Shown here: piece after piece, positions 1-6,008 of the stretch
Layout of the letters: each line of letters starts with the position of its first letter
Position numbering within the stretch: position 1 is the stretch's first letter
Source: Candidatus Iainarchaeum sp.
GTDB lineage: Archaea > Iainarchaeota > Iainarchaeia > Iainarchaeales > JAFCCJ01
Reading direction: 5' to 3'
Length of the DNA: 16,726 bases
Assembly (NCBI GenBank): GCA_043816965.1
Contig: JBDRHK010000071.1
Location: forward strand, 1 to 16,726
Notes under the pieces: model-generated
The model's input: only the letters and a program-made list of their open reading frames with translations
Database searches by the model: none
What the model was told of the DNA's origin: nothing
Translations under genes and position numbers: made by a program

Positions 1-905
1 CCCCTAAGTGTTGGAACCTCAATTTCAGTTCCAAGTGCAGCCTCGCTGAATGAAAGCGGAATCTCTGAAAAGATGTCTGTTCCGTCCCTTTTGAAAAACT
101 CGTGGGGATTAACAAATAAAACAACAAATAAATCCCCTGAAGGTGCGCCCCTCTCTCCGGAATTTCCCTGCTCCTGCAGCCTCAAATGGTTTCCTGTATT
201 AACCCCTGCAGGAATCTTAACCTTCATTTTCCTTCTTGCCTTTACTCTTCCCACACCCCCACATTTATTGCAGAGATTCTCAATCATCTCCCCCTCGCCA
301 TGGCACTTGCTGCATGTCTGCCTAGTTGCAATTGTCCCTAAAATAGTTCTCCTAATTTGCTCTTCCAATCCAGTTCCAAGGCAGATATCGCACCTGGTTT
401 TTTTAGTGCCTTTCTCCGCACCACTTCCTTTGCAGCTATCGCATTTTTCCATCCTTTCAATAGTAAATTCCTTCTCAATTCCAAATGCTGCTTCCTCAAA
501 GGAAATTCCCAAATCAAAGCGGATGCTCTCCCCCTGCTGAGGGCCCCTTTTCCGCCCTGAACCAAAGGCTCCCCTAAAGAGGTCGCCCATTCCCCCGCCA
601 CCGAATGCAAAATCAGAAAAAATATCCCCAAAATCGAAATCAGCGCGCTGAAATCCAGCACCTGAAAAATCCCCGAAGCCTCCGAACCTCTGCGCGGCAT
701 CACCAAATCTGTCGTAATTATTTTTCTTCTGTGGGTCACGCAAGGTGTTGTATGCCTCAAGCACTTCCTTGAATTTCTTTTCAGCACCCTCCTCCTTGCT
801 CACATCAGGATGGTATTTTTTCGCCAGCTTTTTGTAGGCGGCCTTAATATCGTCCGGAGAGGCATCTTTGGAAATACCTAAAGTATTGTAGTAGTCTTTT
901 GCCAA
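1..905 (-). CDS. dnaJ: Molecular chaperone DnaJ (class A); 3' end runs off the window
   Basis: Absent from the ORF track (no stop in window). Manual translation from TTG at 905 gives MAKDYYNTLGISKDASPDDIKAAYKKLAKKYHPDV (J-domain HPD), a G/F-rich region with a DIF motif, four CxxCxGxG motifs (CDSCKGSG, CDICLGTG, CSKCHGEG, CNKCGGVG), then VKIPAGV. Lies directly downstream of dnaK. Confidence 0.97.
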   Translation of the reverse strand, partial: MAKDYYNTLGISKDASPDDIKAAYKKLAKKYHPDVSKEEGAEKKFKEVLEAYNTLRDPQKKNNYDRFGDAAQRFGGFGDFSGAGFQRADFDFGDIFSDFAFGGGGMGDLFRGAFGSGRKRGPQQGESIRFDLGISFEEAAFGIEKEFTIERMEKCDSCKGSGAEKGTKKTRCDICLGTGLEEQIRRTILGTIATRQTCSKCHGEGEMIENLCNKCGGVGRVKARRKMKVKIPAGVNTGNHLRLQEQGNSGERGAPSGDLFVVLFVNPHEFFKRDGTDIFSEIPLSFSEAALGTEIEVPTLR

Positions 906-959: not shown

Positions 960-2849
960 TTATTTCTTGTCCTTATCCTTATTTTCGTCCTCTACCTTAA
1001 AATCAGCATCCACAACATTATCCTTATCGGACTTTTCCCCTTTCTTTTCCTTACCAGCTCCCTGCTGCGCCTGCTGCTTTGCCGCTTCCTCTGATGCTTT
1101 TTGGTAGAGTTCGGTTGACATTGCCTGAACTGTTTTATTCAGCTCATCCAGTTTCTGCTTAATCTTTGCAACATCCTTTTCCTTTGGCTTAAGCAGTTCC
1201 TTTAACTCATTTACCTTTCCCCTGATTTCCTCTTCCTTTTTTGCATCAATCTTGCCCTTCATATCCTCAAGCACTTTCTCTGTACTATAAACCGCGGCAT
1301 CTGCCTGGTTCAGGGTGTCAATCTCTTCCTTAATCTTCTTGTCTTCCTCTGCATGCTGCTCTGCCTCTTTCTTCATCCTTTCAATTTCTTCATCATTGAG
1401 TTTTTGGGAGGCAACAATCTTTATGCTCTGCTCCTTCCCAGTTCCCATATCCTTTGCAGTAACATGCACAATTCCGTTTGCATCTATATCGAAGGTAACC
1501 TCAATCTGCGGAACCCCTCTTGGTGCAGGGGGAATTCCAACCAATTGGAACCTTCCCAAACTCTTATTTCCCACAGCCATTTCCCTTTCTCCCTGCAGGA
1601 CATGTATGTCCACCGCGGGCTGGTTTTCTGCGGCTGTTGAAAATATCTGGCTTTTTTTAACCGGAATTGTTGTATTTCTCTCAATTAGTGGTGTCCTAAT
1701 CCCCCCAAGGGTCTCTATCCCCAATGTAAGTGGGGTGACATCAAGAAGCAAAACATCCGTTACCTCTCCTGAAAGGACCCCGCCCTGGATTGCCGCACCC
1801 ATTGCGACAACTTCCATTGGATCAACCCCTCTCTCAACCTTTGCCCCGACCGCGGCTTCAACAAACTTTTGCACAGCAGGCATTCTTGTGGGTCCGCCAA
1901 CTAAAACAACCTCGTTTATTTCCCCAGCAGTCATTTTTGCATCGGCAAGGGCCTGCTGGATTGGCTTTTCACATTTCCTTATTATAGAATCAACCAATTC
2001 CTCAAGCTTTGCCCTGTTAATTTTCATAATCAAATGCTTGGGCCCAGAGGAATCGGCAGTAACATAAGGCAAATTAATCTCAGTCTCCATTACAGAACTC
2101 AATTCAATCTTTGCCTTCTCTGCAGCCTCATTGACCCTTGGAATTGCCATTGAGTCTTTTGTTATGTCAACGCCCTGGTCCCTCTTAAATTCAGCAACAA
2201 TATAATCCATCAATGCCTCGTCCATATCCCTTCCACCAAGCTGGGTGTCGCCGCTTGTGCTTTTAACCTCAAACACGCCATCGCCGAATTCCATTACAGT
2301 GACATCCAGGGTTCCGCCACCAAAATCAAAAACCATGATTTTATGCTCTTTTCCCCTTTTCTTGTCCAGCCCATAAGCAAGTGCTGCTGCTGTTGGCTCA
2401 TTAACAATCCTTTCAACCTTCAATCCCGCAATTTCGCCTGCATCCTTTGTTGCCTGCCTTTGGTTGTCATCGAAATAGGCAGGAACAGTAATGACTGCCT
2501 TCTCAACCTTGTCCCCCAAAAAGCTCTCGGCATCCTTCTTAACTTTTTGCAGGATAAATGCACTTATCTGCTGCGGGGTGTACTCTTTCCCGTGTACCTT
2601 ATACTTATGGTCAGTTCCCATCTTTCTTTTGGCACCTGTAATTGTGCCCTCAGGATTGCTTACTGCCTGTCTTCTTGCAGGTTCTCCCACTAACATCTGT
2701 CCGTCTTTTGTAAATGCAACAACCGATGGGAACGCCTTCCCATAAACAGTGTTTCCCTCTGCTGAAGGGATAATTTTCGGCTTTCCTCCCTCAAGAACCG
2801 CAGCAGCGGAATTCGAGGTGCCGAGGTCTATGCCTATTATCTTTGCCAT
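960..2849 (-). CDS. dnaK: Molecular chaperone DnaK (Hsp70)
   Basis: 629 aa. [75 protein letters not shown]. Confidence 0.99.
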
Positions 2850-2851
2850 GT

Positions 2852-3802
2852 TTAATCACTCTCCTCAAGAATTTTTTTTACAACAACAGATTTTTTGCTG
2901 TGTTTTAAATATAAACCAATAGTTTCTACCCATTTTCTTAAATATTTTTTTGGAATTCCAAGTCGATAAACAGTTTTTTTTGCCCTGATTATTCTATTAT
3001 TTAAATAATATGCTCCTGATCGTTTTTTCATTTTAAGCATTGAGTTTTTTATCCCGCATTCATTCAAATAGTTTGAAATATTATCCAATAATCTTTTATT
3101 TGAGTTATAGAGATAAACGTGAAAATATTTTTTTTGTTTTAAGACACTTCCTTCCGCATCCCAAAAACCAGCCAAAAAATTCTGGGCTAGCAAGTCTTCA
3201 GAAAGAATATGCATAATAGTATCTTCCCTCTCAATTTTATTTCTTTTTATTAAATCCGCAATTTTTACACTAGATAGTTTTATTTTCCATAAGCCATCCT
3301 GTCTAACGGTTTCTTTGATTTTTCCGTATTTTTCCATAATTCCTTTTAAGTATTCTTTCATGCCTTCATCTTTATTAAAAACCTCAACACAATATTTTTG
3401 TACGGCACCATCTCCAAGGCAAAATCCTACCAAATAGGACAAATCTTTATCAATTGGTATGGCAGAAATATTCGTTGAACCTTCTCTAGACATAAAAATT
3501 GAGCTTCCGCTAAAATTTGCCGGAATAGCCAGATTGTTAATATGTCTTCTTCTGGATTTAACTCCGAGCTGTTTAAACCAATAAGAAAGGGATGAATCTG
3601 GAACATTAAATATTTTTTCTAAGGCTTTAATATCGTTCTGAGGATATAAATTATTAATTAATTTAATCAATTTTTTATCCCCTATCGATTTTCTGACTTT
3701 TTGGAAATTACTTTCTTTTCTGATTAAATTTATCTTATTTATAGTATTTACATCATCTTGCGAAATTCCCTGAACAATTGCATCCAATCTGTAATTAACC
3801 AT
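2852..3802 (-). CDS. Free-standing two-motif LAGLIDADG (DOD-type) homing endonuclease with putative N-terminal helix-turn-helix
   Basis: Motifs [14 protein letters not shown] and [13 protein letters not shown], followed by [24 protein letters not shown]-like segment [25 protein letters not shown]. Likely ATG at 3802 behind the SD-like AGTGAT. Markedly AT-rich. No intein splicing termini. Confidence 0.88.
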
Positions 3803-4328
3803 GGTTATCACTATCTCGATTCTCATTTTCTAAATTATTCACCTTGACCTTACTCGGCCTCAAAACCTGGCCATTCAATAAATATCCTTTCTGGAATTCC
3901 TCCAAAATAATTCCGTCTTCCTTACGTTCATCCTTTCCCTGCATCATTGCCTCATGCAAAGAAGGGTTAAACCCCTTTCCCAGGGATTCAATTTCCTCCA
4001 AGCCCTCTTTTGCAAGAAACTCCTTCAATTGCTTCTCCATCAAAGAAACTCCCTCAAGCACTTTCTCAAGGCTAATTTCATTATTCCCCTTCATTTTATC
4101 AACCGCATTCTCAAATGATTCCACGAATGGCAGGAATTCCGCAATAATCTTTGCATTGGAATTTTTCCTGAATTCCTCTCGTTCCTTATCACTTCTCTTC
4201 TGGAAGTTCTCGAATTCTGCCTGTTTCCTTTGCAGCAAATCCTTGAACTTATCCCTCTCTTCCAGGAGTTCCTTCATCGCGTCCTTTTCCTTCGCATCCG
4301 CCTTTTTATGCACTTGTTTATCGCTCAT
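3795..4328 (-). CDS. grpE: Nucleotide exchange factor GrpE
   Basis: [50 protein letters not shown]; first gene of the dnaK operon. Confidence 0.97.
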
Positions 4329-4353
4329 TGAACCACTTTTAGAAGAATAAATC

Positions 4354-4403
4354 TGTTCAAACTGTTTAAACGTTTATACCATTGTTTAAACAAAAGTTTA
4401 AAA
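4354..4403. promoter_or_regulatory. Divergent promoter region with clustered GTTTAAAC-like palindromic boxes (TATA boxes and candidate operator)
   Basis: GTTCAAAC 4355-4362, GTTTAAAC 4364-4371, GTTTATAC 4372-4379, TGTTTAAACA 4383-4392, GTTTAAAA 4396-4403. CAAAAG-TTTAAAA resembles BRE-TATA and ends 24 nt before ATG 4427. Confidence 0.6.
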
Positions 4404-4426
4404 GCCTTTCCTGCACCATTCCCTAT

Positions 4427-4855
4427 ATGGATGAAAGGAAAGCGTCTTTTAAAATTGTAATAAGGAAGATTGAAAGGCCCTTTTCCAATGAGCCGATGGA
4501 TGAATTGGACTGGATTTGCGAAAGCCTTGGCTTTTTCGAGACAATTGATAAGGACAAAACAGCGTCATCAATCTTCAGGGAAATTGTTACCGCAACAGAA
4601 AAAGGGGAAGCATTAACATCAACTGCAATCGCCGAAAGGGTCGGCATGAGCCGTGGCGCTGTCATCAATCATCTCAACAATCTCCTTCGCGCCGGGCTTA
4701 TTACAAGGCATGGGAGATATTACATTGCGCGCTCAAAATCAGTTTACAGAACCATAAAAGAAATTGAAGAGGACATTCTTTCTGTTTTCAGGAAAATGGA
4801 AATAACCGCAAGGGAGATTGATGAGGAAATGGGCATAGAGGTTAATGAAAAATGA
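4427..4855 (+). CDS. Winged helix-turn-helix (ArsR-like) transcriptional regulator
   Basis: LTSTAIAERVGMSRGAVINHLNNLLRAGLITRHGRYY is an HTH plus wing, followed by a coiled-coil-like C-terminus. ATG 4427 is preferred over TTG 4382, which lies inside the promoter boxes. Confidence 0.88.
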   Translation: MDERKASFKIVIRKIERPFSNEPMDELDWICESLGFFETIDKDKTASSIFREIVTATEKGEALTSTAIAERVGMSRGAVINHLNNLLRAGLITRHGRYYIARSKSVYRTIKEIEEDILSVFRKMEITAREIDEEMGIEVNEK

Positions 4856-5400
4856 GCAAGGGAAAAATGAAATTAACACCTAAACTGGTTTTCTTCCCAG
4901 GAATAATTTTTCACGAACTTTCCCATTACCTGGCATGCCTTCTGATGGGGGTTGAGGTAAAGGAGATTGAATTTCTCGGAAAAAAGGATTCGTTTGTTGT
5001 CCATGGGAAGGCAAACCTGCCACAGTCAATCGCAATAACCACTGCACCATTTATCCTTGGAAATATTTTCGCCCTGATTTTCCTCCTTTTTGCAAAAGCA
5101 ACCTTTCTCACCCCCAATCCGCTAATGATTATCTATCTTTGGTTCGCGGTTTCATTCATCTATTATTCTTTCCCAAGCGAGAAGGATGCGCAGAACACCT
5201 TTGACGCATTTTTCCTGTTTTTCCAGGAGAAGGTGTTTGAGTCAAAGGAATTTTCCAAGAAAGTTTTTTGGGCAGTTCTCACACCGTTTATGTTTGTCCC
5301 CATGACCTTTCTTTTGGGGATTATCCTGCTTTTTGACAAGTCCTTTTTTATGAGGCTTGTGTGGGGAATCATCATTTTGTCTATTGTGGCCGCATTGTAA
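4852..5400 (+). CDS. Membrane-embedded HEXXH zinc metalloprotease-like protein (DUF3267/M50-like)
   Basis: PGIIFHELSHYLAC (HEXXH), TAPF, FPSEKD and several hydrophobic helices; ATGA overlap with the regulator stop codon. Confidence 0.75.
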   Translation: MSKGKMKLTPKLVFFPGIIFHELSHYLACLLMGVEVKEIEFLGKKDSFVVHGKANLPQSIAITTAPFILGNIFALIFLLFAKATFLTPNPLMIIYLWFAVSFIYYSFPSEKDAQNTFDAFFLFFQEKVFESKEFSKKVFWAVLTPFMFVPMTFLLGIILLFDKSFFMRLVWGIIILSIVAAL

Positions 5401-5402
5401 TG

Positions 5403-5410
5403 TTTTTATA
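5403..5410 (+). promoter_or_regulatory. Putative TATA box
   Basis: TTTTTATA ending 23 nt before ATG 5433 and no SD motif, consistent with a leaderless transcript. Confidence 0.45.
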
Positions 5411-5432
5411 CTAGAAAGTCCCTACTAATACT

Positions 5433-6008
5433 ATGCTTGAAAAGGCAAGGAAAATAAACCGGGAATCGACCCAGACTATTAAAACCACCGCAAAGGAAAA
5501 GATAAAGCGGGTGAGAGAGGATAATAGGGTAATCGCCCTTGAAGTTCTGCAGTTTGTTCTGATGCTCATGGTTTTTTTGGGAGTTATAATGCTTGTGATT
5601 CCCAGTGACCCGTCAATCGAATCCTTTGTAAGGGAGTTTTTCCTTAACTTCAATTCAGAAGAGCAGGTAAACAACTTCATTTCACTGATTCAATTCCCGA
5701 ATAATATTGTATTTTTTGCAGTAATTGTTGCAGTTGCATTATGGCTCTACAGCTACACCGCCAATTTTAGGAAAGAGCGCACAACACCAAAAAACAAAAA
5801 ACTGAGGGCACTGGAAACTATTGCCCTTTTCGTGATATTGCTGATTCTCCTGCTAATAGCAACCTCTTTCCACTTTGACCCCACAAAGGACATTGTACTC
5901 GCGCCATTGGGCCTGCTCATTGTCATGCTTTTGATAATCCCCTTCATCTACCTTTTCCTTTACATAAAGGAGCACAACACAATCAGTGAACTCCTGAAAA
6001 GGAATTAG
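5433..6008 (+). CDS. Hypothetical integral membrane protein (about 4 TM, internal two-fold repeat)
   Basis: 191 aa, four hydrophobic segments, basic N-terminus and loop; fills the gap between neighbouring genes and has a TATA-like box upstream. Confidence 0.75.
   Translation: MLEKARKINRESTQTIKTTAKEKIKRVREDNRVIALEVLQFVLMLMVFLGVIMLVIPSDPSIESFVREFFLNFNSEEQVNNFISLIQFPNNIVFFAVIVAVALWLYSYTANFRKERTTPKNKKLRALETIALFVILLILLLIATSFHFDPTKDIVLAPLGLLIVMLLIIPFIYLFLYIKEHNTISELLKRN

Follow-up and report, generated by a model that had tools for sequence, protein, structure and literature searches.

A free-standing LAGLIDADG endonuclease family directly before dnaK in DPANN archaea

Homing endonucleases encoded by free-standing genes are known chiefly from phages and organelles, whereas the LAGLIDADG enzymes of archaea are typically found in rRNA introns and inteins. 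A LAGLIDADG gene lodged between grpE and dnaK, in the heat-shock operon of an archaeon, therefore raises the question of what the gene is and what keeps it there. The case comes from a contig of 16,726 nt assigned to Candidatus Iainarchaeum sp. (the whole stretch analysed, here called the window). The original prediction, drawn from the DNA letters alone, saw either a mobile nuclease that homes into an operon junction without splicing or a domesticated DNA-binding regulator. Here the gene and its product are described, the family to which they belong is delineated, and the two answers are weighed together with less probable ones.

The gene, its neighbours and its product

The endonuclease gene is co-oriented with grpE and dnaK and fills the whole gap between them, at the coordinates originally proposed (Table 1). 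It overlaps grpE by 8 nt and ends atop the ribosome-binding site and start codon of dnaK, with 2 nt as the sole non-coding DNA. Two in-frame ATG codons could open the reading frame; the shorter, 316-aa form is likely the gene, because homologues start at the corresponding 'MVNY' ATG. On the other side of grpE lies a divergent winged-helix gene, which is the more likely regulator of the operon; among the 19 loci whose upstream flank reaches 1 kb or more, 18 contain a homologue of it upstream of grpE. A conserved inverted repeat is also found upstream of grpE, at about 4345-4400 of the window, and could be a binding site. Within the window, no convincing repeats, direct or inverted, were found at the borders of the insert, and a PADLOC search for defence systems gave no informative match.

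Table 1. Coordinates of genes, signals and protein segments at the grpE–dnaK junction of the window
Feature	Position	Strand	Remarks
Endonuclease gene	2852..3802	(-)	Free-standing LAGLIDADG, 316 aa; ATG at 3802, TAA 2852-2854; homologues begin at MVNY; alternative in-frame ATG at 3826 gives 324 aa (P0001)
First LAGLIDADG helix (GFCLGDG)	3401..3442	(-)	Asp139 codon 3410-3412; aligns to I-DmoI D21
Second LAGLIDADG helix (GFWDAEG)	3146..3181	(-)	Glu225 codon 3152-3154; aligns to I-DmoI E117
N-terminal helical domain and beta-hairpin	3452..3766	(-)	P0001 residues about 21-125
MerR-type helix-turn-helix (profile matches sub-threshold)	about 3545-3631	(-)	Invariant P62, S78, W83, R93
dnaK Shine-Dalgarno GAGGAGAGTGAT	2855..2866	(-)	Within final codons of the endonuclease gene
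grpE	3795..4328	(-)	Pfam match (1.9e-41); stop 3795-3797
grpE 11-codon tail	3798..3830	(-)	1 residue replaced and 10 added; reads into the endonuclease start region
dnaK	960..2849	(-)	Pfam match (8.6e-226); ATG 2847-2849, 2 nt past the endonuclease stop
dnaJ	3..905	(-)	Runs past the window end
ArsR/HTH_20-type winged-helix gene	4382..4855	(+)	Divergent from grpE; HTH_20 1.1e-9

Could the gene be the endonuclease part of an intein or intron (group I or archaeal), misread as free-standing? Its nearest relatives in sequence include the intein-borne PI-PfuI as well as NCBIfam models of RpoA'' and RNR proteins that contain inteins. Against this, each of grpE and dnaK is a complete gene in a frame of its own, the Pfam search of the protein returns no Hint or intein-splicing domain, and the protein starts MVNY and ends EESD, lacking the N-terminal Cys/Ser and C-terminal His-Asn of an intein. 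An Rfam search of the whole window at the gathering threshold gave 0 matches, so that no intron RNA was found, and the 2 nt of non-coding DNA are all that remains at the junction. The intein or intron reading, already dismissed in the original prediction, is extremely improbable and, on the sequence evidence, refuted.

The LAGLIDADG assignment is borne out by both profile and structure. LAGLIDADG_3 matches two stretches of the protein (1.5e-14, 54.4 bits), and the best sequence matches in the PDB are I-DmoI and PI-PfuI (E about 4e-4, 21-24% identity). An AlphaFold (AF2) model with a pLDDT of 86.8 finds I-DmoI as its best Foldseek match (E 1.2e-9, target-normalised TM 0.69). The protein has the two interface helices and the alpha-beta-beta-alpha-beta-beta-alpha fold of double-motif LAGLIDADG enzymes, and each motif is closed by an acid of the metal-binding kind, as predicted. 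Asp139 is invariant in all 29 aligned proteins and in the 24 genomic copies (24/24) that cover this part of the gene, and Glu225 in 29/29 proteins and 26/26 genomic copies; an invariant Asn, N151, lines up with I-DmoI Q42 in an alignment judged by eye. Alignment and model together show an I-DmoI-like double-domain nuclease, predicted to be monomeric, with a complete-looking active site. Like I-DmoI, I-Tsp061I and PI-PfuI, its best matches in sequence or fold, it carries two LAGLIDADG helices with an alignable catalytic Asp/Glu pair. Unlike these enzymes, which reside in rRNA introns or inteins, it is encoded by a free-standing gene and carries, in addition, some 120 N-terminal residues that form a domain with a helix-turn-helix (HTH).

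The HTH-like segment foreseen at the N-terminus does emerge, at sub-threshold scores. The model places helices at residues 23-87 and strands at 96-124 (pLDDT 71-92). MerR_1 matches the N-terminal parts of 21 of 24 family members at E<=1 (best 2e-4), all below curated cut-offs, the window protein itself scoring 13.1 bits against a cut-off of 21.6 bits; a profile built from the family N-terminal parts retrieves the RacA winged HTH at E 0.004, also below the curated cut-off. By these profiles the putative HTH is closest to MerR_1, and not to HTH_7 or HTH_23. The protein as a whole falls outside the MerR/HspR-type regulators, its MerR HTH being sub-threshold and its remainder a nuclease fold. Accessory HTH domains fused to homing nucleases of the LAGLIDADG, HNH or GIY-YIG type are likewise found in phages and Bacillota. 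Protein-atlas clusters combining LAGLIDADG_3 with HTH_7/HTH_23, HNH with NUMOD3, and GIY-YIG with HTH_23 are leads only, because all their scores lie at 0.80-0.85.

A comparison with WhiA is instructive, as this regulator also unites an HTH with a LAGLIDADG scaffold, degenerate in its case. Pfam LAGLIDADG_WhiA does match the window protein (30.4 bits, E 4.4e-7), more weakly than LAGLIDADG_3, and neither WhiA_N nor the WhiA HTH domain is detected in the Pfam search. In contrast to WhiA, the HTH of the window protein is N-terminal, which agrees with the reversed domain order noted at the outset, the catalytic acids are kept and the distribution appears patchy.

A family fixed before dnaK

Full-length homologues (n=40) share 42-65% identity with the window endonuclease, which rules out a chance reading frame. 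In databases they are labelled only 'LAGLIDADG family homing endonuclease' or 'hypothetical'. They form a tight, old, widespread and site-faithful family that spans several DPANN archaeal phyla. A single scan of genome contigs with the endonuclease yielded 26 loci. In all 26, dnaK lies immediately downstream; grpE is visible upstream in 23, and the other three end at a contig edge. The endonuclease stop falls between -11 and +14 nt from the dnaK start at each of the 26 junctions (the window and L001-L025), and a GGAGG/GGTGAT-type element, identified by eye, sits within the endonuclease 3' end at most of them. The grpE side is variable, from an overlap to a spacer of 522 nt, with other small ORFs in some cases. 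Since the left side varies and the right side is fixed, the element is tied to the 5' end of dnaK. Decayed older copies were considered as the content of the long grpE-endonuclease spacers; these show no protein similarity to the family at E<0.03 and hold unrelated small ORFs instead.

What is new is an endonuclease family of DPANN archaea that lies directly before dnaK at all 26 loci, with a Shine-Dalgarno element inside its 3' end at most junctions. No published account of this endonuclease-dnaK arrangement was found in the literature. Searches of phage and plasmid collections returned no homologue, so that no vector is known, and PHROGs gave no significant match.

The family is under constraint. 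Identity to the window protein is higher for the endonuclease (41-65%) than for GrpE (30-51%), 25 of 26 loci are intact, and the reading frame is uninterrupted in each of the 24 full-length genomic copies. Invariant columns run along the whole alignment, HTH included, indicating purifying selection over the full length. The exception is L026. Compared with its neighbour L023 it lacks about 373 bp, the second LAGLIDADG half among them, and the otherwise invariant Trp is changed; its dnaK is intact, and the endonuclease 3' end carrying the dnaK Shine-Dalgarno is retained. Between L023 and L026 the endonuclease dN/dS is 0.05. Synonymous divergence of the same pair is greater in the endonuclease (pS 0.72) than in the flanks (0.53), a gap not taken as a sign of separate acquisition because the flanks, with their skewed composition, saturate at a lower level.

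These data bear on the possibility that the gene is a stranded passenger, once homing but now immobile and functionless, kept through the dnaK ribosome-binding site and the rarity of clean deletions. The Shine-Dalgarno position at most junctions, the deletion in L026 that spares exactly this 3' end and the lack of a known vector all speak for it. However, a functionless gene should gain frameshifts and lose catalytic residues, whereas the 24 full-length copies are open, their catalytic residues do not vary and dN/dS is 0.05; the passenger explanation is thus improbable.

Composition, patchiness and trees

The low GC content of the reading frame is confirmed in sliding 300-nt windows, with 25-34% inside the ORF and 42-50% in the flanks. 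Its use as a sign of recent acquisition, as first proposed, proved unsafe. At each of the 26 loci the endonuclease gene has a higher AT content than the remainder of the locus; where the host's dnaK GC3 is 0.65-0.80, endonuclease GC3 is only 0.27-0.41, and the gene is AT-richer even than the non-ORF DNA of these hosts. Mutational equilibrium is insufficient as a cause, host non-ORF DNA still having a GC content of 0.44-0.56. Because the skew is family-wide, and present even in related copies of related high-GC hosts, it is a standing property of the family and carries no date stamp. Recency alone explains such persistent AT-richness poorly.

The gene appears to be patchily distributed among relatives, absence being inferred indirectly from protein-search tables. 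Of the 65 nearest DnaK relatives whose contigs measure 10 kb or more, none lies on a contig equal in length to one that bears an endonuclease match, and ten of these apparent non-carrier contigs also bear a GrpE match. They include the window's sister (DnaK 90% and GrpE 78% identical, on a 31,355-bp contig). When presence and this indirectly inferred absence are mapped on the DnaK tree, at least eight changes are required, seven of them forced by well-supported branches.

A trace of insertion may be preserved in grpE. The 11-codon tail of the window's GrpE is missing from its three closest GrpE relatives, which finish at ...KVNKLN, and it terminates inside the endonuclease start. By this comparison, the tail is a putative insertion scar, and it marks the left boundary of the AT-rich stretch. 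The window's DnaK shows no visible co-conversion tract, and the DnaK N-termini of carriers and non-carriers do not differ. The idea that the N-terminal part of the endonuclease derives from the first dnaK codons, the gene having inserted within dnaK and a new 5' end having replaced the old one, is no more than a lead: a DnaK-like leader is found in only two of 29 testable endonucleases (P0026, which is the L009 protein, and P0037, each with p about 0.001), and at the DNA level the L009 leader shares 18/30 identities with dnaK, which equals the background.

Comparison of the endonuclease tree with the trees of its neighbours gives an answer in two parts. Joint constraints reject congruence with the flanks: the endonuclease alignment rejects the clades supported by DnaK and GrpE alike, when these are imposed as a tree constraint (p-AU 0.014-0.018), and, more strongly, the well-supported DnaK clades (p about 0.001). 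GrpE itself is fitted better by the DnaK topology than by the endonuclease topology (delta lnL 45 against 124). The nearest relative of the window endonuclease is that of L001, which is not the nearest host by either DnaK or GrpE. On the other hand, four single-clade tests on the endonuclease alignment leave the host groupings unrejected (p-AU 0.27, 0.066, 0.077 and 0.15), and the major endonuclease clades broadly track host clades. The endonuclease tree thus seems to conflict modestly with those of both flanking genes.

Homing or domestication

Which of the two original answers do these observations support? Mobility is favoured, on the strength of the fixed site, the apparent patchiness, the one decayed copy, the invariant catalytic residues and the modest tree conflict. 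It is proposed, with a probability of about 0.6, that the gene encodes a free-standing, site-specific homing endonuclease riding the heat-shock operon in the manner of the phage T4 seg/mob genes. The gene would be transcribed as a promoter-less cassette of the operon and translated through coupling. Its product would cut gene-less alleles at or close to the uninterrupted DNA that precedes dnaK or forms its 5' end; enzymes of this family recognise long targets of about 14-40 bp, and a 4-nt 3' overhang would be expected. Repair from a gene-bearing copy would insert the 0.96-kb cassette, a process of 'intronless homing' as in T4 seg/mob. Imprecise deletion of the gene would probably harm dnaK expression, and retention would be favoured because the dnaK translation signals sit within the endonuclease 3' end. 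Copies would nevertheless decay and get lost over time, leading to the patchy distribution. Weighing against homing are the four non-significant clade tests, the lack of a co-conversion tract in DnaK, the likeness of DnaK N-termini in carriers and non-carriers, the AT-richness that persists in related high-GC hosts and the lack of a homologue in the phage and plasmid collections.

The T4 precedent supplies several of these elements. In PMC2988022, the free-standing T4 endonucleases are described as promoter-less cassettes in polycistronic messages, and the signals of an essential downstream gene, embedded in the endonuclease gene, as favouring retention. The seg/mob genes resemble the window gene in lying between conserved genes in the same orientation, in embedding signals of the essential gene downstream and in a patchy occurrence among relatives, which for the window family is apparent. 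The differences are also clear. The seg/mob enzymes are of the GIY-YIG or HNH type and belong to phage genomes with frequent co-infection, whereas the window family is LAGLIDADG and occupies one site in cellular DPANN chromosomes across phyla. Moreover, T4 enzymes cut hundreds of bp from their own gene.

The principal rival is a domesticated LAGLIDADG-HTH protein, a host-kept, DNA-binding part of the heat-shock operon acting for example as a promoter regulator or as a stress-induced nuclease. HspR, a regulator of bacterial dnaK operons, belongs to the MerR family, and WhiA illustrates a domestication in which the catalytic residues were lost. Analogy with both, given the MerR-like N-terminal HTH, argues for a regulatory role, as do the strict gene order over several DPANN phyla, the conserved translational coupling to dnaK seen in the junction layout, the broad likeness of endonuclease and host trees with its four non-significant tests, and the inverted repeat upstream of grpE as a candidate binding site. 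Selection points the same way: the rarity of decay (1/26), a conservation above that of GrpE and a dN/dS of 0.05, with constraint extending over the HTH, fit host-level selection at least as well as mobility. Set against these points, the catalytic acids and the Asn equivalent to Q42 are all invariant, the closest relatives apparently manage without the gene, one copy is internally deleted next to an intact dnaK, and a separate conserved winged-helix gene already stands beside grpE. In addition, the composition looks foreign in every host, and under the joint constraints co-inheritance with the flanks is rejected. Domestication is therefore weakened, though only weakened, and is best regarded as an unlikely alternative that still deserves serious attention.

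A related and rather doubtful proposal is that the endonuclease is perhaps a kept component of the heat-shock operon, a catalytically competent protein made together with GrpE and DnaK that would bind or cut a conserved site for operon control or stress recombination, or else that it persists by an 'addiction by translational coupling' gained through takeover of the dnaK start.

The locus reveals a free-standing LAGLIDADG family apparently wired into the transcription and translation of a heat-shock operon, before a universal chaperone gene. If the favoured homing endonuclease is indeed mobile, it would provide direct evidence for ongoing DNA exchange and homologous recombination among DPANN lineages, which are uncultured episymbionts, and would serve as a natural marker to trace this exchange; it would also represent a new meganuclease specificity against a very conserved sequence. 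A domesticated protein would instead mean that the LAGLIDADG scaffold has been reused independently for a second time, after WhiA. Should it prove to be a kept operon component, or addictive by coupling, it would define a new route by which a homing endonuclease becomes wired into a core stress response.

The operon and its internal reading frame

The window is archaeal DNA: it encodes the archaeal proteins aIF2-gamma, aIF5B, S6e, S24e, L7Ae, Rpo7-like, Kae1 and Sua5, and its proteins find their best matches in Diapherotrites/Iainarchaeota MAGs. As the original prediction had it, a 316-aa ORF fills the grpE-dnaK gap, its ATG lying in an 8-nt overlap with the grpE stop and the dnaK ATG 2 nt past its TAA. 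An alternative in-frame ATG at 3826 would add 8 residues; alignment places the start of the homologues at MVNY, not at this ATG. The predicted AT-richness is also real: in 300-nt windows, GC content is 0.25-0.34 within the ORF, compared with 0.42-0.50 beyond it. The original observation thus holds on all points.

Genes of the heat-shock operon in the window
Feature	Coordinates	Strand	Remark
grpE	3795-4328	minus	first of four in order
316-aa ORF	2852-3802	minus	between grpE and dnaK
dnaK	960-2849	minus	after 316-aa ORF
dnaJ	3-905	minus	continues past window end

Besides the endonuclease, the operon has a more conventional candidate regulator, since an ArsR/HTH_20-type winged-helix gene lies beside grpE, divergent or upstream, in 18 of the 19 loci whose upstream flank spans 1 kb or more, and the grpE promoter region contains inverted repeats. 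Palindromes of the GTTTAAAC type occur directly upstream of grpE in the divergent promoter shared with the winged-helix gene (window 4345-4400). Several related loci have an inverted repeat of ∼17 nt located 15-40 nt before the grpE start (e.g. GTTGACTTAAAGTCAAC in L007); palindromes or repeats are found upstream of grpE in L003, L005, L007, L014, L017 and L020-L022, and a TTTGATTAAA box lies farther upstream in some loci. These repeats look like an operator conserved in DPANN heat-shock operons, with the adjacent ArsR/HTH_20 protein as its probable binder.

Fold, active site and fixed position of the family

The HMM search and structure prediction proposed as checks both identify a LAGLIDADG enzyme. 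Pfam LAGLIDADG_3 matches two stretches of the protein (1.5e-14), LAGLIDADG_WhiA and Hom_end match more weakly, and PI-PfuI and I-DmoI are the sequence matches in the PDB. An AlphaFold model built from 29 family sequences (pLDDT 86.8) has I-DmoI chains as its best fold matches (E 1.2e-9, target-normalised TM 0.69). The two helices keep their acidic residues, as predicted: Asp139 and Glu225, aligned with D21 and E117 of I-DmoI, are invariant in the 29-sequence alignment and kept in 24/24 and 26/26, respectively, of the genomic copies containing that position. According to alignment and model, many further invariant residues lie where beta-strands of the DNA-binding saddle are predicted, which suggests to us that all family members share one conserved DNA target. 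No Pfam splicing domain was found, in line with the claim that the protein is not an intein; an intein or intron origin of the window copy is excluded as far as can be read from the sequence.

The N-terminal ∼120 residues comprise a conserved domain of helices and, after it, a beta-hairpin. The HTH-like character ascribed to this segment is supported by MerR_1, matched at E≤1 by 21 of 24 family members (the best at 2e-4, and every match under the curated threshold), and by the RacA winged helix, matched by the domain profile at E 0.004. Neighbours in the protein atlas are HTH-bearing homing nucleases of phages and Bacillota; with scores <0.9, they are leads only.

The family is small and tight. 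A word-indexed protein search gave 40 relatives with 42-65% identity, nearly all of ∼300-350 aa (three are shorter), and an exhaustive search of representatives gave only 18 cluster representatives at E≤1e-30, with many ordinary LAGLIDADG proteins trailing far below them. A genome scan yielded 43 loci, with family members in L001-L026, from MAGs labelled Iainarchaeum, Micrarchaeota, Woesearchaeota and Nanoarchaeia, plus two contigs labelled Binatia and Acidoferrum. The latter two (L006, ‘Binatia bacterium’; L018, ‘Acidoferrum sp.’) have an archaeal-type grpE-endonuclease-dnaK locus and a DnaK that clusters with DPANN sequences, and are probably mis-binned.

dnaK is immediately downstream of the endonuclease in 26/26 loci and grpE upstream in 23, contig ends cutting the other three. 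The right-hand junction keeps its position: at all 26 junctions measured (window and L001-L025), the endonuclease stop falls between -11 and +14 nt from the dnaK start, and at most of them a dnaK Shine-Dalgarno sequence (GGAGG/GGTGAT) is seen by eye within the last endonuclease codons. The left junction is loose, ranging from overlap to a 522-nt spacer, and unrelated small ORFs occupy some spacers. Thus, the element is anchored to the dnaK 5' end, not to grpE.

Some loci have peculiarities of their own. The spacer of L013 holds a 163-aa ORF (5399-5922), and those of L014 (4885-5167) and L020 (7476-7998) a common short Cys-rich, zinc-finger-like ORF (77% DNA identity over 69 nt). Two in-frame stops in the first 60 dnaK codons of L002 (7373-7552), at a contig end, reflect either sequence error or a damaged gene. 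In the family members L009 (5689-5730) and P0037, the N-terminal peptides MEKISGIDL... and MGKIIGINL... resemble the DnaK N-terminus, M.KIIGIDLG (shuffle test, p ∼0.001 each); the other 27 endonuclease leaders tested show no resemblance, and DNA identity between the L009 leader and dnaK is at background.

Evidence for and against mobility

Several observations count toward mobility, the first being patchiness. GrpE relatives of the window reach 84, 78 and 75% identity and one DnaK relative 90%, with the best endonuclease relative at only 65%. Among the best 120 DnaK relatives listed, 65 sit on contigs of 10 kb or more, and none of these contigs (0/65) matches an endonuclease-bearing contig in size when the protein-match tables are compared; they are presumed, from this size comparison, to lack the endonuclease. 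Ten also carry a GrpE match, one of them being the 31,355-bp contig from the closest relative of the window. The matching works, since five endonuclease matches agree by eye in contig size with their own genomic loci. In a DnaK phylogeny built with FastTree from 24 carriers (L002 and L010, with partial DnaK, left out) and the 65 presumed non-carriers, sampled around the window only, the carrier label has to change at least 8 times, with 7 changes forced by starred branches, against a shuffled mean of 21.5.

The phylogenetic conflict with the flanking genes would also speak for mobility. Endonuclease and DnaK topologies are mutually rejected (LG+F+G4); GrpE rejects both and prefers that of DnaK (delta lnL 45 versus 124). 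The endonuclease alignment rejects trees constrained to DnaK clades with ≥97% bootstrap (p-AU ∼0.001) or to four clades backed by both flanks (p-AU 0.014-0.018), under LG+F+G4 and LG+C20+F+G4 alike. Pairwise distances of endonuclease and DnaK are only moderately correlated (Spearman 0.41), and L001, the nearest endonuclease relative of the window, is not its nearest host by DnaK or GrpE. The comparison of the endonuclease with its flanking genes gives conflict under joint constraints, but not in single-clade tests of four host groupings, none of which is rejected (p 0.27, 0.066, 0.077 and 0.15).

A possible scar and a decayed copy also count toward mobility. The window GrpE has an extra tail that terminates within the start codon region of the endonuclease; its three nearest relatives, by contrast, end in ...KVNKLN, and the L004 GrpE shares the ‘...HG’ ending of the window GrpE. 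This tail may be an insertion scar. L026, ∼80% identical in DNA to L023, is a decayed copy: its endonuclease lacks ∼373 bp, including the second LAGLIDADG half, and has a frameshifted tail and an invariant Trp changed to Arg, while the 3' end with the dnaK ribosome-binding site is retained.

Composition counts toward mobility as well, but does not date the element. The endonuclease is AT-richer than the rest of the locus in 26/26 cases (by 0.03-0.25) and comes close to its host only where host GC is itself roughly 30%; where dnaK GC3 is 0.65-0.80, its GC3 is 0.27-0.41, and it is AT-richer than the non-ORF DNA of those hosts too. The bias is, however, retained in a high-GC clade of mutually related copies, a point against mobility that sits badly with simple recency, so the earlier argument from AT skew to recent acquisition fails.

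Against mobility stand, besides the single-clade tests, the coincidence of major endonuclease and host clades, 25 of 26 loci that look intact, better conservation of the family than of GrpE and a dN/dS of 0.05 (L023 versus L026). No co-conversion tract is visible, and no carrier-specific changes were found in DnaK N-termini. A domesticated DNA-binding or stress-nuclease role is a less likely reading. A stranded, functionless passenger is more doubtful still, the conservation of the endonuclease making it improbable.

A probable homing cassette before dnaK

Nuclease fold and active site, fixed site and operon coupling are established, and the gene is most likely a free-standing homing endonuclease cassette. 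The operon promoter would drive its transcription, and coupling to grpE its translation. The enzyme would recognise the uninterrupted dnaK 5' region in non-carrier DNA, a conserved target that the conserved saddle residues fit, and repair of the double-strand break from a carrier copy would install the cassette. Because the dnaK ribosome-binding site lies in its last codons, only precise deletions would be tolerated, slowing loss. The same logic has been described for seg and mob of phage T4, which lack promoters of their own and are expressed as cassettes within polycistronic messages; their retention is favoured by embedded signals of essential downstream genes (PMC2988022). Genes for free-standing endonucleases are, in general, confined to target sites between genes (NAR 2026, PMC13619312).

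Other loci of the scan show different arrangements. In a Nitrosopumilales MAG (L030:7821-8708) and a Nitrososphaerales MAG (L031:7764-8681), a LAGLIDADG_3 ORF of 295-305 aa immediately precedes the gene for a UbiA prenyltransferase and may represent another site-faithful free-standing archaeal family. A 267-aa LAGLIDADG ORF in a Bacillota MAG (L032:2-2880) separates two ORFs that jointly encode a single barrel domain of ribonucleotide reductase; the gene is split, or else the endonuclease is carried by an intron. A distant relative in a Hadarchaeota MAG (L027:54-1170) is split over two overlapping frames and adjoins an SMC-like ATPase, and a Nanoarchaeota MAG (L028:8025-9772) has two adjacent LAGLIDADG ORFs.

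Database names of family members are generic, and the portions of the literature covered by our search hold no description of a LAGLIDADG endonuclease at the grpE-dnaK site in DPANN archaea. Within that coverage, what is new is that a free-standing LAGLIDADG family resides in the chromosomes of cellular archaea and keeps to a single operon site.
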